Below are positions 1 to 51,565 of a stretch of DNA of 64,000 bases, one piece after another (the first letter of the stretch is position 1; every line of letters starts with the position of its first letter). The translations under genes and the position numbers were made by a program. The notes under the pieces are model-generated. The model worked only from the letters and a program-made list of their open reading frames with translations. It was not told the DNA's origin and did no database searches. Source of the stretch: Mobula hypostoma (lineage: Eukaryota); the NCBI RefSeq assembly GCF_963921235.1, contig NC_086097.1, positions 88,972,001 to 89,036,000 on the forward strand. Reading direction: 5' to 3'.

Positions 1-174
1 CCAGTCCTTGTGTCAGACAGAGGATGATAACCAAAAGACAACGATTTAAAGTAATCTGTGAGGAATTAAAGGGAAGCTGGGGAAAATACTCGGCTGGCAT
101 CTAGCACTTTGTGCTTGGAAGAGTGGTGGAGGCAGAAGCCTTCATCATATTTAAACCAAGATTGGGGGTGTGGT

Positions 175-21479: not shown

Positions 21480-22860
21480 TAACTTGTTGGTCGTGGCCTT
21501 AATTATTAAGGGTGTTATCCTTTGAATAACAAGAGGATTTAACAATGCAAGGCACAAGCAAAGACAGTTGAGTAGAATTAGAGAAATAGGAATTGAATTA
21601 CGCTTCAGAGTTTGAGAGCTGTAAGATAGTATAATGCATATATTCAAAGATTAGACAAGCAAAGATAATTAGTTTTAATGGAGACTATTTTCTCAATGAG
21701 ACAAGTTGGGACAAACTGAAAAGTAGGATAGATTTTTAGTAAAAAAATATACCAAACACAGTCATGGGCAGGCTATACTGAATTTGGTAATGAGCGGTGA
21801 ACCTGGTTTTCTTAATATTCTAACAGTGCATGAGTATTTATGTACTACTCATCATAATATTGCTGAATTCAATATAGTGTTTAAAAGAAAGAAATTTGTA
21901 ACAGGTAACAGAAATCGAGATTATAGCAAGACTGATTTCAACCCCACATGACATACACAGTCTATGTAAATGAAGCAATGCTATGCATGGGTATATGATG
22001 GCAGATCAGCAGAGTATTTCGAAAGAACATTTGATTCAACATCGAAGGAGGGGCAGAAAAAGATCAGCCATGGATATGCAAAAGGCAAGAATCAACAGAA
22101 AAATACAAGGAAAAGCATGAATAGCTCAGGTTATAAAATTATTGTACAATTACTGGAAATACAAAGAACAAAGTGACATGGAATACAAGAGATTCTACAG
22201 ATGCTGGAATTCCAGACTAACACACTCAAAATGTTGGAGTAACGCACACAAAATGTTGGAGTAACACACACAATCCAGAGTAACACACACAAAATGTTGG
22301 AATAACACAAACAATCCAGAACAACACACACAAAACATTGGAGGAACTCAGCAGGTCAGGCACCATCAATGGAAAAGAACAAACAGTCGATGTTTTGGGC
22401 CAAGACACTTCTTCAGGACTGGAAAGAATGGAGAAAGAAGCCAGACTAAGAAACTGGGGGGAGGAGAAGAACTACAAGCTAGAAGATGATAGGCAAAGCC
22501 CGTGACATGGAAGATGTGTACAAAAAGGAGAGAAAGAACTTACAAGGAGTATTAAACTCAGTGCCCTTTGTGTAGGAGTTATAGTACAGAAAAGAAGGGT
22601 GTTAAGTATTATGGCCCCTTTGAGATCTGTTAAGAGTGATGTTGTGAATGACATTAAGGAAACACTGGTAACATTTGAGGGAAAAGGTAGGATTGTAAGG
22701 AAGCCAGTGTTGACCCGGGGTAGTTTGGCGAAACCTCTGAGAAGTATTGCACCAGAGCTGAGGCACGTCAGATGCAATGTCGTACCATAGCTCCTCTGCC
22801 TTTACAGAGACAGTTGAAAATCTCAACAGTGTAGGAGCAGGGGAATTTGACCAACATAAT
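21480..22860 (+). mobile_element. Very old decayed CR1-like ORF2 (endonuclease region) interrupted by a PLE terminus
   Basis: Purine-rich degenerate coding-like sequence with many stops (gggcaggctatactgaatttggta, atcataatattgctgaattc); weak recognition only. Confidence 0.35.
22185..22520 (-). mobile_element. Penelope-like element terminus with tandemly amplified end and decayed hammerhead (22384-22421)
   Basis: Reverse complement CAGTC-CTGAAGA-A-GTGTCTTGGCCC-AAAAC-ATC-GACTG; tandem units at 22219-22343. Confidence 0.75.
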
Positions 22861-28361: not shown

Positions 28362-28800
<439 letters not shown>

Positions 28801-28899
28801 GCCTTTAAAAAGATGGTTCTGTCTTAATTCTGCTCATCTGACCTGGAATTTTTAGTGGTCAAGTGTTGTCCATTTTATCTGCTGAGGGAGGTCTCCACC

Positions 28900-30520
28900 A
28901 TCATCCTGGTAGTGGGTACAACCTACAGAAGGCTATTTTAATAGTAAAACAACAATTCCAATTGAGGTTAGAGATGGAATCAGATGTACGTCAGCTCTGG
29001 TGGGGTTTGCAGGCCATTATTTCCTGCAAAGTGAAACCTAACATGGTGAATGGTTGTGATGCTTCACTCCCAGATGAGTTCAATGCCATTTCTGCACACT
29101 TTGACAGGGAGAATAAAACATGAGTCCTGACGAAGGGTCTTGGCCCGAAACGTCGACTGTGCTTCTTCCTATAGATGCTGCCTGGCCTGCTGCGTTCACC
29201 AACATTTTTTGTGTGTATTGATAAAACTACACCTGTGTGAATCTCTGCAGCATCTGGTGACCCTGATCTCTGTCTCGGAGGATGATGTCAGAATATCTTT
29301 CAAGAGGGTGACCTCTCGGAAGGCATCAGATCATGATGGTGCGCTCAAAACCTGTGCCAACCAACTGGTGTGAATGTTCAAGGACATTTTCAGTCTCTCA
29401 CTGCTGTAGTAGGAGGTTCCCACCGCCTTCAAAATGGCAGGAATCGTGCCAGCGCCCAAGGAGAGCTGTCAACGACTTTTGCCCAATTGCATGCACATCC
29501 ATTGTGAAGAGGTGATTTGAGAGGTTGGTCATGGCCAGGATCAACTCCTGCCTAAGCAAGAAACTGGACCTGCTGCAGTTTGTTTATCTCCACAACTGGT
29601 CTACAGCAGATGCAGTCTCAGTGGCTCTCCACTTCGCCGTGGATCATCTGGACAATAGTAATTGATTATTGATTACAACTAGGTGTTCAACACAATCATA
29701 CCCTCATTTCTAATCAAAAAGCACCAAAATCTGGGCCGCTGTACCTCCCTCTGCAACCAGTTTCTTGACTTCCTCACCAGGAGACCACAGTCAGCGTGAA
29801 TCAGAAATAACATCTCTTCCTCCCTGACAATCGACACTGGTGATGATTGCTTATCCCACCGCTCTACTCTCTCTACACCCGTAACTGTGTGGCTAGGCAC
29901 ATCTCCAACGCCATCTATAAATTTGCTGATGACGTATCTGTTGTTGGCAGAATTTCAGATGGTGGTGAGGAGACGTACGGGAATGAGACAGATCAGCTAG
30001 TTGAGTGGTGTCGGAACAACCTTACACACATTGTTAGTAACATCAAGGAATTAATCGAGGACTTCATTCAGGGAAAGTCAAGGGAACACAAACCAGTCCT
30101 CAGCGACGGATCAGCAGTAGAAAGGGTGAGTAGTTTCAACTTCCTGGGTGTCAACATCTCTGAAGATCTAACCTGAGCCCAACATATTGATACAATTACA
30201 AAGAAGGCACAACAGGTCCCATATTTCATTGGGAGTCTGAGGAGACGTGGTGCGTCACCAAAGACTCTAATATATTAGATTTCTACAGATGTACTATGGA
30301 GAGCATTCTAGCTCGCTGCGTCAGTGTCTAGTGTGGAGGAGCCACTGCACAGGATTGAAAAAAGCTGCAGAAGGTTGCAAACTGAACCAGCTCCATCATG
30401 GGCTCTAGACTCCCCTGCATCAAGAACATCTGCAGAAGGTGATGCCTCAAGAAGGCGGCATTCATCAGTAAGGACCCCCATTACCCAGGACATGCACTCT
30501 TCTCTTTGCTACCCACTGGA
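28900..30520 (+). mobile_element. Rex1/Babar-like LINE, decayed
   Basis: RQLWWGLQAIIS, ALKTCANQLV and LYSLYTRNCVARHISNAIYKFADD motifs; carries a 101-bp insertion at 29120-29220. Confidence 0.88.
29123..29158 (+). ncRNA. Minimal type-I hammerhead ribozyme motif with intact core (Penelope-associated)
   Basis: AGTC (stem I) - CTGACGA - A - GGGT/CTTG/GCCC (stem II) - GAAAC - GTC^ - GACT (stem I'); all conserved core nucleotides present; predicted cleavage after 29154; helix III is the loopless palindrome ACGT. Confidence 0.8.
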
Positions 30521-30719
30521 ACACCACACACTGCCTCTCCAGGGAGAGCTGGGCATCTGAAGGAGGACGGGCAGCTGGCTCTGGTATTAACAGCTGCTGT
30601 CTGGACCTACGAAGTCAAAGTCGAGTTTATTGTCATATGTACAACAACATGCTTTTACAGGTGCAATGAAAAACATTCCCACAGCTTAGTCGCTGGCACC
30701 TAGAATCAGATATACAATG

Positions 30720-31775
30720 TTCCTGCTCTATCACTTTACACTTGATACTGTGTGGCTAAATACAGCTCCAATGCCATTTTCAAGTTTGCTGAGGACACCA
30801 CTGTCGTAGGCCAAATCAAAGGTGGGGACGACTCAGCATATAGGAGGGAGATTAAAAATCTGGCTGAGTGGTGCCCCAACAAAAACCTCTTACTGAATGT
30901 CATCAAGACCAAGAAGGTGATTGTTGGCTTCAGGAGGAATTCAGAAGGTGATTATGGATTTCCTTGAGCTGTACCTCATCGGAAGATCGGAGTTGGAGAG
31001 GGTCAGCAACTTTAAATTCCTCAGTGTTATTATTCCCGAGGACCTGCCCTGGGCCCAGCTCGTAAGTGCAGTTATGAAGAAAACATGGCAGTGCCTTAAC
31101 TGCCTTAGAAGCTTGCGAAGATTTGGCATGATATCTAAAACTTGACAAACTTCTGAAGACGTGTGGTGGAGAGTATATTGACTAGCTGCATCATGGCCTG
31201 GTATGGAAACACCAATGCTCTTGAATGGAAACCCCTACAAAAAGTAGTGCACACAGCCCAGTCCATCACGGGTAAAGGCATCCCCACCACTGAGCACATC
31301 TGTATGAAACCTTGTCACATGAAAGCAGCTTCCATCATGGGGAATCCCACCAGCCAGGTCATGCTGTCTTCTCACTGCTGCCTTCAGGAAGAAGGTACAG
31401 GAGCCTCAGGGCTCACACCACCAGGTTCAGTAACAGTTATTACCCCTCAACCATCAGCCTCTTGAACCAAAGGGGATAAATTCACCCTACTTCACTTGCC
31501 CGATCACTGAATTGTTCCCGCAACCTATAGACTTACTTTCTCAATATTTATTGTTTCCTTTCTTTCTCTCTTTCTTTATTATTTCTTTTCTTCTTTCTTT
31601 TTGTAATTGCACAGTTGGTTGTCTTTTGCCCACTGGCTGTCTGCCCTGTTGGTGCAGTCTTTCATTGATTCTATTATGGTAATTTATTGAGTATGTCTGC
31701 AAGAAAATGAATCTCAGGGTAGTATATGGTGATATATATGCACTTTGATAACAAATTTACTTTGAACTTTGAACA
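30720..31775 (+). mobile_element. Rex1/Babar-like LINE 3' portion
   Basis: AKYSSNAIFKFAEDTTVVGQI, ERVSNFKFLSV and VESILTSCIMAWYGN motifs; tail aaatttactttgaactttgaac. Confidence 0.88.
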
Positions 31776-33424
31776 TTCATGAGAAAAACAAGTAATGTAA
31801 TTTTTTTTACAAGTAAGAACACAATTAGAACAAACATGTCCATATTAGTATACAGTGGTCATAGTTTTGCTTTACTAATGAGGTGATTAAATTTATGCAA
31901 ATTGATTCCATGGCCGAGTGGTTGAAGGAAGTAGGTGTTCTTGAACCTGGTGCTGTGTGGGACTTCGAGATTCTGTACCTCCTGCCTGATGGTAGCTGCA
32001 AGAAGATGGCATGGCCTGGATGAAGGGGATGTTTGACGATGGACATTGTCTCGTGCAGATACTACTGATGGTGGGGAGGGATGTGCCTGTGATGTATTGG
32101 GCAGCCCCTGTACTCTCAGCAGTGTAAGTTGCTATGCATTCAAATGGCCATCTCAGTCAGACCCAGGAGCTGGCAGATGAGAAGATCAGGCAGTGGCTGT
32201 CGAGGAATTCGTGGCCATCCCCAATCCCACATTGAGTGCCCAAGGGTAGAGAAGTTGCGTCTGAAATGAAACCAGAACTTGTGGAACAGCGTTTTCAGGT
32301 ACTCTTAAAAGGGGCTGCATTCTCTTGCATTCTACATATGAATGAAACATTAACATTCGCAGGCAACTGGAATAGCAGGTGGCCTGGGAATCTGTCAATA
32401 AACATAGAAAGCTGTCATACCAACGGCTCTGTGCTACACTTACCATCCCAGGTCCCTGATTCCTGCTGTAAGGTGGGGGGTGATAGTTACATACCCACAC
32501 CCCACACCCCCCGCCACCATTGCTGCCAGTTGGCACAATGAATAGATCACCACGGACTCCAGGTCAGTCCATATAGGAATGTACCCCCCCGCCCCCCATG
32601 AAATGGAACAAAGAGTATTTCTGAAAGACAGTTCCTGTTGTGTGGAGCCAGCTCCCGATGGAGATTCTGGGGCCTGGACCCAATGAGAAATCCCAGCTGA
32701 ACAGGCTTCGGCCTAGAGGGGATCACCCCACAGCTGGTGATCCCACTTGATGGCCAGGAGTGATTGATGGGACAGTGTAGAGAGAGCATTGCTTTGTTTC
32801 AAACCCATGCTGTCTATGCCCAGGAGGGTTTGATAGGGCCAGGGCCGTGCAGAGGGAACTGTACTTGGTTTCAAGCCACTTCTCTTTTTTAATCTTTTCT
32901 CCCCTAGCTTATGCAATCCTGCTCTGGCGGTATTTGATGAAGAAGGATGCCGTATACTTTATTCCATACTGGTACAGGGTGCCAAACTGCAATCAGCTCA
33001 GATTATTTATCTGGCCTGAGAGCACTTAATGGGAAAGTAAAGTGGGTTGTTTACCTTGCATCTAACCCCTATCTGATTCGACACCAGCACTACTTTATAT
33101 TTAACTAATGCTAGGTTTGATAGAATACTGTAGATAGGCTGTTATATCTAGCCTGGCCCGACCAAGAGGTTTAGAAACACTCTATAGGCTGGAGCCTCGT
33201 TTATAATTGACATTTGAGTGTTTCTGACATTTGCTGTTTTCGTAATGAAATAATCTGATGTTCCGAACAGGTTATATATGAGGGGAAGAAACCTCCTTTT
33301 GTTCTGATCCTGCACTGATTAAAATTCAAGTATGCTCCATCAGAAATTTTCAGTGATCAGCTAAGTTTACATCCAGCATATGGTGTACCTAGATTGACTT
33401 GTGGCGATGCACTCTGTGCTCTGA

Positions 33425-33736
<312 letters not shown>

Positions 33737-41992: not shown

Positions 41993-42186
41993 TGTGGTGA
42001 CCCACTTTCTGACACCCACGAACCGGCTCACGAAACAGCGCGCGCAGGCAGAGGGCCGGCAGCAAAAAGGGCGGGAACGGGAAGGCTTTAAAGGGGCCGC
42101 AAAGTTTGAATAAACCTCTTTCATCGCAACTCCAACTCACCGACTCCGTGTGGTTATTCTAGCGCTGTGTGTAGCACATCGCTACA
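41993..42186 (+). repeat. 5' LTR (194 bp)
   Basis: tgtggtgaccc...catcgctaca; contains tttaaa and aataaa; directly repeated at 45979-46159. Confidence 0.96.
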
Positions 42187-42188
42187 AT

Positions 42189-42202
42189 TGGTGACCCCGA
42201 CG
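42189..42202 (+). promoter_or_regulatory. Primer-binding site complementary to the tRNA-Trp 3' end
   Basis: TGGTGACCCCGACG, 2 nt after the 5' LTR, is the reverse complement of the vertebrate tRNA-Trp end ...CGTCGGGGTCACCA. Confidence 0.88.
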
Positions 42203-42226
42203 GCCCAAACGATATTTGGACCAGAG

Positions 42227-42928
42227 ATGACCGACGCTGCATCTATTCACGCAGTTTCGTTAGAACTGCCGGGCTTCTGGACGCTGCGACACCATTTATG
42301 GTTCGAACAAGCAGAAGCACAATTCCACATTCGGCAGATAACCTCGGAGTCCACTCGCTACTATTACGTGCTGAGCTCCCTCACCCAGGAGACTGCTGCA
42401 CAAGTTGAGGAGTTTATACAGTCGCCCCTGGAGGACGGCAAATACACAGCATTCAAAGCCCTGCTCATAAGGACTTTCGGACTCTCACGGCGCGAACGAG
42501 CACGCCGCTTAATGCACCTGGATGGTTTGGGAGACAGGCCGCCGTCAGCATTAATGAACGAGATGCTGGCCCTGGCTGAAGGACACAAACCCTGCCTCAT
42601 GTTTGAGCAGGCGTTCCTAGAGCAACTGCCCGAGGACATATGCCTGCTGCTGTTCGACGCAGATTTCAGCAACCCCCGAGAGGTGGCGGCCCGAGCAGAT
42701 GTGCTGTGGAATGCCAGGAAAGAGAGAGGGGCATCCGTTGCACAGATCACCAAGCCGCGTGCCCGACAGACCAGACCAGGCCCGGCAGCAGAGCCTACAA
42801 AACCCGGCGACGGGAGTGAGGAGCCCAACGAACAATGGTGTTTCTACCACCAGCGGTGGGGCACGGAGGCCCGCCGCTGCAGACCGCTCTGCAAATTCCC
42901 GGGAAACGCCAGGGCCAGCCGCCGCTGA
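42227..42928 (+). CDS. Gypsy Gag, intact ORF (233 aa)
   Basis: First ATG after the PBS; LELPGFW...WFEQAEAQF N-terminal motif; C-terminal Cys/His motif CFYHQRWGTEARRCRPLC. Confidence 0.9.
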   Translation: MTDAASIHAVSLELPGFWTLRHHLWFEQAEAQFHIRQITSESTRYYYVLSSLTQETAAQVEEFIQSPLEDGKYTAFKALLIRTFGLSRRERARRLMHLDGLGDRPPSALMNEMLALAEGHKPCLMFEQAFLEQLPEDICLLLFDADFSNPREVAARADVLWNARKERGASVAQITKPRARQTRPGPAAEPTKPGDGSEEPNEQWCFYHQRWGTEARRCRPLCKFPGNARASRR

Positions 42929-42951
42929 TGGCTACGGCGTCTGGCCATCAG
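42901..42951 (+). promoter_or_regulatory. -1 programmed ribosomal frameshift signal (G_GGA_AAC plus downstream stem-loop)
   Basis: X XXY YYZ heptamer in the gag frame; the -1 frame reads KRQGQPPLMAT...FLVDTGAEISV (protease); 42913-42924 pairs with 42935-42946. Confidence 0.8.
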
Positions 42952-45900
42952 GACAGCCTCCTGTACGTCTGGGACAAGCAGTCGGGACGCCGCTTTTTGG
43001 TCGACACCGGAGCGGAGATCAGCGTCTTACCTCTAACGAGTTACGACACCCGCAACAGAGAACCGGGACCCACCCTGAGGACCGCTAATGGCAGCACAAT
43101 ACGAACCTACGGCACCCGCACGGTGCGGCTACAGTTCAGCTCCAGCCGGTTCACGTGGGACTTCACACTGGCCAGCCGTGGCCCAACCACTGCTGGGGGC
43201 AGATTTTCTACGAGCCCACAGCCTGCTGGTCGACTTGCAAGGGAAGCGATTAGTCCACGCCAAGACTTTTCAAACGTCCTCCCTGGGTGAAGCACAGTTG
43301 CCAGCCCCACACCTGGACTCCATCACGCTGTCCGACGATGAATTCACCAGGGTCCTGGCGGATTTCCCATCAGTACTGACACCGCAGTTCACGGCAGCCA
43401 TGCCCAGACACGGAGTACAGCACCACATCCCGACCCAGGGACCACCCCTCCACGCCCGTGCTCGAAGGCTTCCCCCGGACAAGCTCCGACTGGCGAAGGA
43501 GGAGTTCAAGAAGATGGAGGAATTAGGGATCATACGACGGTCCGACAGCCCATGGGCCTCCCCCCTTCACATGGTGCCCAAGGCAACGGGGGGGCTGGAG
43601 ACCATGCGGTGACTACCGCAGACTGAACGAGGCTACAACGCCAGACGCTACCCTGTGCCGCACATTCAAGACTTCGCAGCAAACCTACACGGCGCAAGGA
43701 TCTTTTCCAAGGTAGACCTCGTCCGGGGATACCATCAAATCCCTGTACATCCGGACGACATCCCCAAAACAGCACTTATCACCCCGTTCGGACTTTTCGA
43801 ATTCCTCCGAATGCCGTTTGGTCTAAAGAATGCCGCACAGACTTTCCAGCGGCTAATGGACGCGAGCTGGACTTTGCATTCATCTATTTGGACGACATCC
43901 TCATAGCCAGCAGTAGTCGGCAGGAGCATCCACCTCCGCCAGCTCTACTCCCGCCTGAGTGAATTCGGCCTTACAATCAATCCAGCCAAATGCCAGTTCG
44001 GATTCGACACCATCGACTTCCTGGGCCACAGGATTACTAAAGACGGGGCAACCCCCCTGCCCGCCAAGGTAGACGCGGTCCGCCACTTCCGCCGACCCAA
44101 CACAATCAAAGGCTTGCAGGAATTCGTAGGTATGGTGAATTTCTACCACCGTTTCCTCCCCTCAGCAGCCCGAACCATGCGCCCCTTGTTCACTCTAATG
44201 TCGGGTAAGGGCAAGGACATTACCTGGAACGAAGAGGCCGCAACCGCTTTCGTTAAAACCAAAGAAGCCTTGGCAAACGCCGCGATGCTAGTGCACCCCA
44301 GAACGGACGTTCCTACTGCCCTCACGGTGGACGCATCCAACATAGCAGTCGGTGGAGTGCTGGAACAACTCATCGAGGGTCGCTGGCAATCCCTGGCGTT
44401 CTTCAGCAAACACCTACGACCACCCGAACTCAAATACAGTGCTTTCGACCGGGAGCTATTGGCACTATACCTGGCAATCCGGCATTTCAGGTACTTCTTA
44501 GAAGGTAGGCCCTTCACCGCGTTCACAGACCACAAACCGCTTACCTTTGCGTTCACTAAGGTGTCCGACCCCTGGTCGTCCCGCCAGCAGCAACATCTGT
44601 CCTACATCTCCGAGTACACGACGGACATCCGACATGTCTCTGGAAAGAACAATGTCGTGGCAGACGCACTTTCCAGACCTACCATACAGGCCCTGTCCCA
44701 GGGGGGGGACTATGCAGCGCTGGCAGAGGCACAGCAGGCAGACGCTGAGATCCCCAGTTACAGGACTGCAGTCTCCGGTTTACAGCTTCAAGACCTCCCC
44801 GTAGGCCCAGGTGAGAGGACCCTACTATGTGACGTAGCTACCGGCCAACCCCGCCCCGTCGTCCCAGCAGCCTGGCGCCGTGGGTGTTCGAATCCATTCA
44901 CAACTTAGCGCACCCCTCCATCAGGACAACTGTCCGGCTGGTCTCCAACAGGTTCGTGTGGCATGGACTTCGTAAACAGGTCAGTGAATGGGCCAAAACG
45001 TGTATGCAGTGCCAAACGGCCAAGGTGCAGCGGCACACCAAGGCTCCACCGCAGCAGTTCGAACCCACCCGCCGGAGGTTCGACCACATCCATGTGGATA
45101 TCGTGGGGCCCCTGCCAGTGTCACGAGGAGCACGGTACCTCCTAACTATGATAGACCGGTTCACCAGATGGCCAGAGGCAGTCCCGCTCAGCGACACCAC
45201 CTCCGAATCCTGCGCCCGAGCACTGATCGCAACCTGGGTAACCCGCTTCGGGGTATCGGCCCACATTACCTCCGACAGGGGCGCCCAGTTCACCTCCAGC
45301 CTGTGGTCAGCTATGGCCAGACTTTTAGGAACACAGCTACACCACACAACTGCCTACCACCCACAGTCGAACGGACTAGTGGAGCGCTTCCACCGTCACC
45401 TGAAATCGGCTCTCATGGCCCGCCTGGAGGGGCCTAACTGGGTGGACGAACTCCCCTGGGTCCTGCTCGGAATCCGCACGGCGCCTAAAGAGGATCTACA
45501 CACCTCGTCGGCCGAGTTGGTGTACAGCGCGCCCCTGGTCGTCCCAGGAGAGTTCATACCAGCCCCAAGGGGGCAAGAGGAAGAACCCACAGCAGTCCTG
45601 GACAGACTACGGGAGAGGCTCGGTAACCTGGCCCCCATACCCACTTCACAGCACAGACAGAGCCCGACCTGCGTACCCAAAGACCGGCAGAACTGTAAGT
45701 TTCTTTTTGTACGACGGGGCGGGCACCGGGCACCGCGACAGCGGCGCTACGAGGGGCCGTTTAAGGTGATCAGCAACAACGGGTCCACGTTCGTGCTGGA
45801 TATTGGGGGGAGAGAGGAGGTTTTCACGGTGGACCGACTCAAACCGGCCCATGTGGACTTGGCGCAACCGGTCCAGGCTCAGGCACCGCGGCGCGGCGCA
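42901..45900 (+). pseudogene. Gypsy pol (protease, RT, RNase H, integrase), broken by several frameshifts and small deletions
   Basis: FLVDTGAE (PR); [23 protein letters not shown] and [10 protein letters not shown] (RT); LTVDAS...DRELLA...TDHKPL (RH); HHCC, DDE and GPF motifs (IN), spread over different frames. Confidence 0.93.
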
Positions 45901-45965
45901 GAGGCAGACCTCCCAAACAGAGGCCGATCCAGACTGTGGACATTGGGGGAGGTATCGCCGGTTCT

Positions 45966-45975
45966 GGGGGGGGGG
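45966..45975 (+). promoter_or_regulatory. Polypurine tract (G10)
   Basis: G-run ending 3 nt before the 3' LTR. Confidence 0.85.
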
Positions 45976-45978
45976 TTA

Positions 45979-46159
45979 TGTGGTGACCCACGAACCGGCT
46001 CACAAAACAGCGCGCGCAGGCAGAGGGCGGGCAGCAAAAAGGGCGGGAACGGGAAGGCTTTAAAGCGGGCCGCGAAGTTTGAATAAACCTCTTTCATCGC
46101 AACTCCAACTCACCGACTCCGTGTGGTTATCCTAGCGCTGTGTGTAGCACATCGCTACA
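45979..46159 (+). repeat. 3' LTR (181 bp)
   Basis: Differs from the 5' LTR by 4 substitutions, a 1-bp indel and a 14-bp indel. Confidence 0.96.
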
Positions 46160-50068: not shown

Positions 50069-50428
50069 CTGGACCAAAGAAGGGAGAAAGAGAAAAGGAA
50101 TCAGCTTCTGCTCTCCTGCAACATTGTGTGGGCAATAGTCTGAGGAAACTAGGGATACGAGTGTGAGGGAGATATCACGGGTGTAACCTGGCATATTAAA
50201 CAGACTTGATAAATGGACTTCAATTTTCTTGGTAAATTTGAATTTTGTTAAAGACCCCACTAGAAAGTAAACCTTTGCTTAACATAACTGCAGCACTTAC
50301 AACCAGAGGGTGTGGCCTAAGCCCGGGAACAAATAAACTCTGAAAGTAGAATCCTTGAAGCTGACACAAGGAATTCTGCAGATGCCGGAAATTCAAGGAA
50401 CACACATCAAAGTTGCTGGTGAACGCAG

Positions 50429-50466
50429 CAGTCCTGACGAAGGGTCCCGGCCCGAAATGTCGACTG
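50429..50466 (+). ncRNA. Minimal type-I hammerhead ribozyme motif with intact core (Penelope-associated)
   Basis: CAGTC-CTGACGA-A-GGGTCCCGGCCC-GAAAT-GTC^-GACTG; 5-bp stem I; C15.2 changed to U (U.G wobble); predicted cleavage after 50461. Confidence 0.75.
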
Positions 50467-51565
50467 TACCTCTTCCTAGAGTTGCTGCCTGGCTTGCTGT
50501 GTTCACCAGCAACTTTGATGTGTGTTCCTCGAAGCTGAGTTCATTGATCAGTGTTGAAGTGAGTGAAGTTATCCATGCTGGTTCAGGAGCCTGATGGTTG
50601 AAGAGTAATTAACTTTCCCTGAACCTTTAATAACTTTTCCTGGTGGTGTGAGACCTAGGGCTCCTGTATCCCCTTCCCAATGGCCTGGTAGGTGGGAACC
50701 TTGATAATGGATGCTACAGTCTTGCAGCACTCCTTGTATTTATGCAATTTATATTTGCATTCATTTGCAAGATACATATATGCATTAGATTTTTGTTGCT
50801 GAATGAATTTCTGGAGATGATTACTTTGCATTTTAACATGTGATGATAGGTTATATCTTGTGCCAGTCTGGATTTTCCACTGGATGGATTATAGGTGTTA
50901 AAACCTATTCCAACATTTGAATTTAGAGCAGGGAAACAGGCCACTGGCTTCAGTATGCCCTTGCTCTTGTAGACTTAAACTCATTCATTTTTCCTCATAT
51001 TCCTGTAGCCTCCCCTTAAAAGGGAAGTGCGATCCACTTCAATTTGTGAGAGTGAATTCGAACATACTTTGGATAAATACATTTCTCCTGGATTGTTATT
51101 GCTTTCTCCCATTATCATTCTGGCATGGATCTGGATTCCTGTGCCACAGAAACCTCTAATGAAGTCATAGATACAACAGAGCAAAAGGCTGTTCAGCCCA
51201 TCAGGTCTGCACTGACTGTCAACTACCAACTTGCACTGATCCTACCTCTCCAGTCACGCATCAAGATATACCACGCACCTTCACCTTTGGCCATTCTCTG
51301 TGGCCAATTGACCTACTATCCTGCTTTGTACCTTCTATATTTTAAATGTCTTCATTAGATTACCCCAAATACTGCACCCTTCCCCCTCCCTTTTAGGGAT
51401 GTTCCCAGGCCTCCTGCTGTTCCACCAACCCTACCTGCTCCATTGAAGGATCATTTGAACCACGTACACTGCCATTAAGCCCTTTCTGTGTAACACAGTG
51501 CAGGCTTCATTGTTCTCCATGTGGAGTTTGCACAAGGACAGCTTCTATCCCGAGTGTTACACGGT

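Follow-up and report, generated by a model that had tools for sequence, protein, structure and literature searches.

The closest described relatives of the insert analysed here are Penelope-like elements (PLEs) with an endonuclease, or EN+ PLEs. According to the available portions of three reports (PMC8557442; PMC3846280; PMC11167929), their insertions are 5′-truncated and carry a pseudo-LTR (pLTR), an optional 30–40-bp tail and an inverted copy; the tail, again given as optional in PMC8557442, has been traced to two internal start sites of the reverse transcriptase (RT) in the accessible sections of PMC11167929. The Neptune type is defined in part by a CX2-5CXXC linker between RT and endonuclease (EN), which Nematis shares (PMC8557442, excerpts). 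In vitro, as far as the accessible text of PMC11167929 goes, a lizard PLE nicks AT-rich DNA, primes internally and uses uncut RNA as template; a template with a shorter 5′ end gives a shorter product, and hammerhead cutting is dispensable. The minimal hammerheads of metazoan PLEs have a published feature list (Cervera and de la Pena 2014; PMC4209133, in part), and according to a review (PMC6765202) such motifs are active in dimeric form, with very low rates.

We analysed a window of 64,000 nucleotides, the whole stretch of DNA presented here, which contains the following features.

28386..28493, + strand: upstream CLEC18A-like exon (tblastn, 94% to P0003 residues 287-322)
28860..31790, + strand, ends approximate: decayed host LINE, interrupted by the insert (RT pieces at 29847-31464)
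29113..29119, + strand: left copy of the target duplication, 7 bp, ATAAAAC (from the sequence)
29120..29122, + strand: filler of 3 bases at the 5′ junction, belonging to neither element nor target (the family has GTT here)
29123..29158, + strand: minimal type I hammerhead, with family position 0 at 29123 (from the sequence and exact genomic copies)
29159..29220, + strand: remaining pseudo-LTR to the first family 3′ end (+97), lacking the 36-nt tail (from 3′-end counts)
29221..29227, + strand: right copy of the target duplication, ATAAAAC (from the sequence and empty paralogous sites)
33476..33607, + strand: downstream CLEC18A-like exon (protein matches)

An earlier reading made from the sequence only had described a 101-bp block between 7-bp ATAAAAC repeats, and this is confirmed both in the sequence and by empty LINE sites. 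At 11 paralogous host-LINE loci without the insert, a single copy of the word (a one-letter variant in 3 of them) is followed directly by the downstream flank, which shows both duplication and insert to be genuine. That the insert interrupts a LINE was likewise borne out by the RT pieces and by sister copies that encode RVT_1 along with ALKBH8_N, a pairing that we take to mark Rex-Babar LINEs and on which the label Rex1-like for the host rests. The block does begin 3 nt before helix I, as had been said, but those three bases are not element sequence, and 30 loci with the same three letters have nothing further upstream in common. Because 29120-29122 belong to neither element nor target, the element-derived part is 98 nt (29123-29220) and not 101. 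Elsewhere in this LINE, at 31414-31457, many 3′-region contigs from four public runs loop back by about 41 nt and carry short variable inserts, which is a variable tandem unit in that LINE family. The window also holds, at 42110-46086 (+), a GC-rich LTR retrotransposon whose gag, protease, RT-RNase H and integrase frames are broken into pieces, presumably Ty3/Gypsy-like judging from its motifs.

Helix I of the hammerhead pairs 29123-29126 with 29155-29158 (4 bp), followed by CUGACGA (29127-29133) and an extra A (29134); helix II pairs 29135-29138 with 29143-29146 (4 bp), followed by GAAA (29147-29150), a palindromic ACGU without a loop (29150-29153) and C17 (29154). In family numbering the motif spans 0..+35, with the predicted cut between +31 and +32, after 29154. 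All of the minimal features are present: CUGANGA, GAAA, NUH, an extra base after A9, G10.1-C11.1, a palindromic 15.2-16.2 and a helix I of 4-5 bp. The strict intact 34-nt motif occurs in 7,638 exact copies genome-wide compared with 0 for the reversed control, and the hammerhead is therefore not a chance occurrence. In the available portions of PMC4209133 the described motifs share the core boxes, the extra base between 9 and 10.1, the G10.1-C11.1 pair, the loop-less palindrome and the 4-bp helix I, and are also mostly dispersed single motifs of truncated PLEs. They differ in that helix II is 7-8 bp in Schistosoma as opposed to 4 bp here, and in copy number, which is about 4,000 in coelacanth and about 9,000 in Xenopus as opposed to 7,638 exact and about 110,000 relaxed-core copies here, the latter extrapolated from 37 in 1.17 Mb.

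The canonical hallmarks of a hammerhead, an Rfam match and a stable helix III, are lacking, and a scan of the insert with Rfam at E≤10 matched no hammerhead model. Since helix III has no loop, the description of this motif as a complete hammerhead holds for a dimer and fails for a monomer. Even in the dimer, helix III is predicted to have only 4 bp (-1.7 kcal/mol). Folded as a whole, a 115-nt stretch does no better than shuffles (z 0.25). When folded in context, G5-A6-C7-G8 pairs with C15.2-C17 at a probability of 0.98-1.0, a decoy helix that the change from U7 to C, relative to the published minimal motifs, is predicted to create, and a lone RNA would, on this prediction, trap the core in an inactive shape. 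Retention of CpGs, which had also been claimed, applies to five of them, while the CpG of the helix II loop has decayed, though it is present in most exact copies. In a second young subfamily (L108:5116-5151 and L148-L165), C is replaced by U at 11.1 (…GGCCU-GAAA), so that G10.1-C11.1 becomes G-U or the register shifts to the extra A; copies with long open frames fall in this subfamily.

We put at roughly 0.8 the probability that 29123-29220 are the 3′-terminal 98 bases of an autonomous PLE of Neptune-type layout, likely pasted in by the element's own endonuclease and RT and carrying a ribozyme predicted to be inactive. A search with the 101-mer found 12 further matches in the window and many genome-wide, and in long copies the sequence upstream is a pyrimidine-rich UTR, preceded by coding sequence for GIY-YIG and RT. 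One randomly fetched locus (L108:1334-5215) is a whole element, pLTR-ORF-pLTR, with a target duplication and a spacing of 3,511 bp; tandem units elsewhere are spaced by 3,515-3,516 bp, and partial tandems form the pseudo-LTRs of a parent unit of about 3.5 kb. At L198:1284-4415(-) a frame is open for 1,043 codons and encodes RVT_1 (E 6e-5), then CX4CX2C (CKRNKCYTC, between RT and EN) and then GIY-YIG (E 0.001), both domain matches scoring under the curated Pfam cut-offs. A Pfam scan of decayed pieces of L108 and a PDB sequence search with the intact ORF each returned no match. The parent thus appears to have the layout of Neptune or Nematis, the name Neptune resting on domain order and the Cys linker, and the family shows the features of EN+ PLEs: a single RT/GIY-YIG ORF, pseudo-LTR tandems, an optional tail and inverted copy, and target duplications (7 bp here and 7-17 bp in other copies).

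Compared with Neptune-type EN+ PLEs as covered in the accessible parts of PMC8557442, PMC3846280 and PMC11167929, the family has the same RT, Cys linker and GIY-YIG in one ORF, the same pLTR-forming partial tandems, two 3′ ends about 36 nt apart, inverted pairs and target duplications, and a hammerhead at the pLTR-ORF junction. It differs by its very high copy number and by 5′ ends that pile up at the foot of helix I, a feature those parts do not mention; its long open frame, moreover, opens in the tail region, past the hammerhead on the downstream side, while the lizard Poseidon ORF starts at helix II. Non-LTR retrozymes, in the available text of PMC7229834 and 10.64898/2026.07.22.740005, have the same type I hammerhead and a kinship to PLE pLTRs, and the window copy is non-coding as they are. 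Retrozymes, however, consist of two or more units repeated head to tail, each with its own hammerhead, while this locus holds a single copy, with no tandem array, of one pLTR end with a target duplication. The insert thus belongs with the PLEs and is not a retrozyme, and a SINE is very improbable.

Exact counts over the 3.48-Gb genome, with reversed controls of 0-2, were 84,883 for +2..+17, 74,451 for 0..+17, 58,376 from -6 and 51,540 from -13. Stretches taken at round coordinates (1.17 Mb in all, with edge matches dropped and a few duplicates or mis-hits kept) contained 187 core matches, which extrapolates to roughly half a million arms, older subfamilies included. The insert is one among tens of thousands of short PLE end-pieces in this genome.

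We then turn to where these pieces begin and end, using a sample of 68 young arms picked solely by sequence downstream of the cut site: 25 from random stretches, 28 from a search with +38..+97 and 15 lying off-centre in other loci. Excluded were the window copy, any arm with less than 345 nt of sequence upstream or 175 nt downstream, and any that did not show the young-type pattern. The sequence-only reading had named random 5′ ends as the pattern that would speak against it; the ends instead pile up at helix I. Among the 44 non-inverted arms (24/68 are inverted), 14 start at -9..+4, with 8 of these at 0..+2, and none at +5..+45; another 14 start at -10..-310 and 16 run further upstream. The rate of 5′ ends at -9..+4 is 0.028 per nt as opposed to 0.0015 in the next 300 nt, about 18-fold (binomial p 2e-11), although alignment ends may shift by a few bases through microhomology. 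By source, the pile-up takes 7/16 random, 6/18 searched and 1/10 off-centre copies. No non-inverted young copy (n = 44) starts at the hammerhead cut site.

The genome-wide counts show the same boundary. Between +2 and 0, a step of 2 nt, they drop by 12.3%, compared with 1.8% per nt at -6..-13 and 1/39 in long copies; the step from 0 to -6 is confounded by older subfamilies. A purine at -1 occurs at 3,680 loci genome-wide, and 29/30 loci of this kind are true junctions (13 simple and 16 inverted), the remaining one being a point change. Contigs from public runs of two other organisms also have loose ends at 0/+1, but these belong partly to older subfamilies and were not counted as evidence. Being assembled, the run contigs do not speak to ends, strand or expression, and none of those aligned bridges the orthologous site of the insertion. 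Already known are the element type, the motif and its scattering as single truncated copies, as well as the tail and the inversions. The non-random 5′ ends at the base of helix I are apparently undescribed: no account of them came up in the literature searched for the pile-up or for ray PLEs, outside which lie most subscription papers and Repbase reports, and the pile-up may already be visible in figure S2 of PMC11167929 (coverage of the lizard element) or in the supplements of the Xenopus bioRxiv paper.

The 3′ ends of the same 68 arms fall at +90..107 (33/68) or +127..137 (32/68), with none between and 3 earlier; the window copy ends at +97, tail-less. These two ends correspond to the known optional tail of PLEs. 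An older family copy at 22182-22466 (-) has the segment of the first RT start site repeated 3-4 times head to tail before the tail, with periods of 22 and 41, as might come from slippage or from repeated re-initiation by a telomerase-related RT. At 50364-50533 there is a head-to-head inverted pair of the second young subfamily with an apparent 7-bp duplication (GAAGCTG), one arm running exactly from helix I to near +100 and the other from +61, with a tail. In inverted pairs generally (L106, L109, L111, L126, L141, L097 and others), the arms usually end near +97 and near +134, respectively, with their joint inside the hammerhead or close to it; the pairs look as if both DNA strands had been primed on two RNAs. 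Three further copies (L154, L155 and L166) have 3′ ends at +304 to +384, inside the ORF start, and in some another pLTR follows at once, which would reflect either additional sites of priming or insertions that hit the element itself.

The most likely explanation of the 5′ boundary, at just short of even odds, is that the element's RNA begins at the base of helix I and RT runs off its 5′ end, the short copies being run-off cDNAs. The hammerhead would then lie at the very start of the element transcript, directly downstream of TCAGTT at -6..-1, a word that resembles the initiator consensus. If the lizard PLE is a guide (PMC11167929, in part), the endonuclease would nick AT-rich DNA and uncut RNA would be copied straight through the hammerhead. 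Reverse transcription would start inside the RNA, at +97 for the window copy or at +134 for copies with the tail, and such 5′-proximal priming would yield a run-off cDNA of 100-140 nt ending at the RNA 5′ end (-9..+4), which repair would join to the target with a few filler bases. We favour run-off because the ends are sharp, none lies inside the motif, the initiator-like word is present, the Penelope promoter is internal and TATA-less (PMC2377424, in its available part) and the competing cDNA hairpin is weak. Against it, 12/20 copies containing the ORF start reach upstream to -30 or beyond and only 3/20 start at -4..+14, so many templates start further upstream. The lizard start sites, as given in the accessible text of PMC11167929, are AC-rich, whereas the sense-strand ends here are GU-rich. 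A cap-derived G at -1 was rejected, since the first 100 loci listed have 48 G and 52 A there, with no cap-like excess of G (p 0.42).

Structure could set the boundary instead, in that nascent cDNA would fold into the mirror hairpin (0..+35) and either leave the weak, pyrimidine-rich RNA template or be trimmed back by a nuclease, of the host or of the element, as far as the hairpin base. This would fit ends that match the hairpin base within a few bases with none inside the hairpin in non-inverted copies, the head-to-head inverted pairs joined inside the hammerhead, the many templates that clearly reach upstream, and a group of just 4 ends at -209..-222, close to a further hairpin predicted in the cDNA. 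The hairpin is nevertheless weak (-2.6 to -4.5 kcal/mol), falling outside the 25 strongest of 703 unit windows, and no ends of this sample pile up at a stronger one, at -185; we regard this explanation as unlikely, though a serious contender.

Young and old subfamilies alike have a polypyrimidine tract and AG directly at helix I, and the 3′ end of the D. virilis Penelope intron coincides with helix I's 5′ end (PMC4209133, excerpts), so the boundary could be a splice acceptor and the short copies could derive from spliced or splicing-related RNA. Two sets of 30 junction loci, however, have no common upstream exon, and their extra bases look like local filler; the contig joints listed for four runs (RNA status guessed) include no GT..AG joint over the pLTR. 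The lack of common upstream sequence rules out a shared spliced 5′ exon, and splicing in any form is improbable. An antisense template, raised for rotifer PLEs in the available text of PMC3846280, or a cut by the element's own endonuclease would share whatever probability the other explanations leave.

The sequence-only reading had proposed a young, PLE-mobilised mini-retroelement, and much of this stood: the hammerhead is of PLE type, and the copy is young and was inserted by PLE machinery. What fell is the distinct non-autonomous element, a discrete SINE-like unit of 100 bp with its own master copies, which we now consider very improbable. Many copies do share one 5′ start, measure 100-140 bp and lie between target duplications of 7-17 bp. 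Yet an autonomous PLE has these 98 nt as its 3′ terminus, the short copies come with two kinds of 3′ end, both inherited from the parent, and have no sequence of their own, and short and long copies occur side by side, unclustered, in both young subfamilies; none of this supports a separate mini-element. In a tree of 15 short and 29 long copies, which at 90 columns is weakly resolved with most forks open, there are 12 label changes compared with 12.7 after shuffling (207-210/500 shuffles as low), and the nearest neighbours of the window copy are long copies (97% over 89 columns). The shared non-random 5′ end is thus found, but an own lineage of short copies is not. In addition, the protein of the lizard PLE requires the ORF's first 172 nt (PMC11167929), which the short copies lack. 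"Stand-alone" describes the locus and not the family.

The insert had also been placed, in sense, in a CLEC18 intron, which is correct: it is flanked by + strand exons of a gene on the + strand. For the downstream exon, 92/93 candidates at E≤0.001 are largely named CLEC18A-like, the closest full-length ones being from rays, as is likely of the genome too, and one CLEC18A-like protein maps at least nine exons on the + strand, from 11453 to 37047; an exon atlas look-up scored under 0.9 and is a lead only. In run X5 (organism B, RNA status guessed), one 167-nt contig matches precisely the CLEC18 exon at 28386-28490 and continues unlike the window on both sides, as a spliced transcript would. Among the eight family pieces listed in the gene span, 3 are sense and 5 antisense, too few for an orientation bias, and the window copy is the only one with an intact core. 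As a cryptic acceptor in the intron the copy was ruled out, as it lacks a pyrimidine tract and its upstream sequence is purine-rich.

Cleavage of CLEC18 pre-mRNA after 29154, which would take a partner in trans to affect the gene, is the least probable of the proposals. The core is intact and sense, thousands of intact partners exist in the genome, and the lizard PLE hammerhead cuts with its protein present (PMC11167929, in part). Nonetheless, an effect on CLEC18 is unlikely because the RNA alone is predicted to be trapped, dimer helix III is short and weak, and no other intact copy, and hence no intact sense partner, was found among the pieces listed in the gene. Published precedent points the same way, as far as the available parts of the sources go: minimal PLE hammerheads show no activity as monomers and low activity as dimers (PMC4209133), 8/9 Xenopus dimer elements were uncut and 1/9 cut (10.64898/2026.07.22.740005), and introns that a slow hammerhead cuts still splice (PMC2995048, citing Dye 2006 and Fong 2009). 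The intronic copy is, as far as these predictions go, likely a neutral passenger, and as one of 7,638 exact intact motifs, this single locus carries little weight.

The weight lies with the family and with the question of what the PLE hammerhead is for, since none of the simple copies begins at the cut site and about one third begin just before the ribozyme. This pattern of ends fits the in vitro result that the template is uncut, and it predicts either a precise RNA start or an enzyme stop. More tentatively than for run-off itself, we propose that 5′-proximal priming with run-off at the hammerhead foot is a second product of the Penelope cycle, recorded in thousands of junctions of the ray genome, and that about one in three simple insertions is an uncut ribozyme in a precise cassette of 100-140 bp. 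Solo hammerhead stumps should not be called retrozymes or SINEs. If the proposal is true, DNA alone maps the start of a PLE transcript, the copies show in vivo that uncut RNA is the template, and the solo minimal hammerheads strewn over animal genomes would be explained without a separate SINE.
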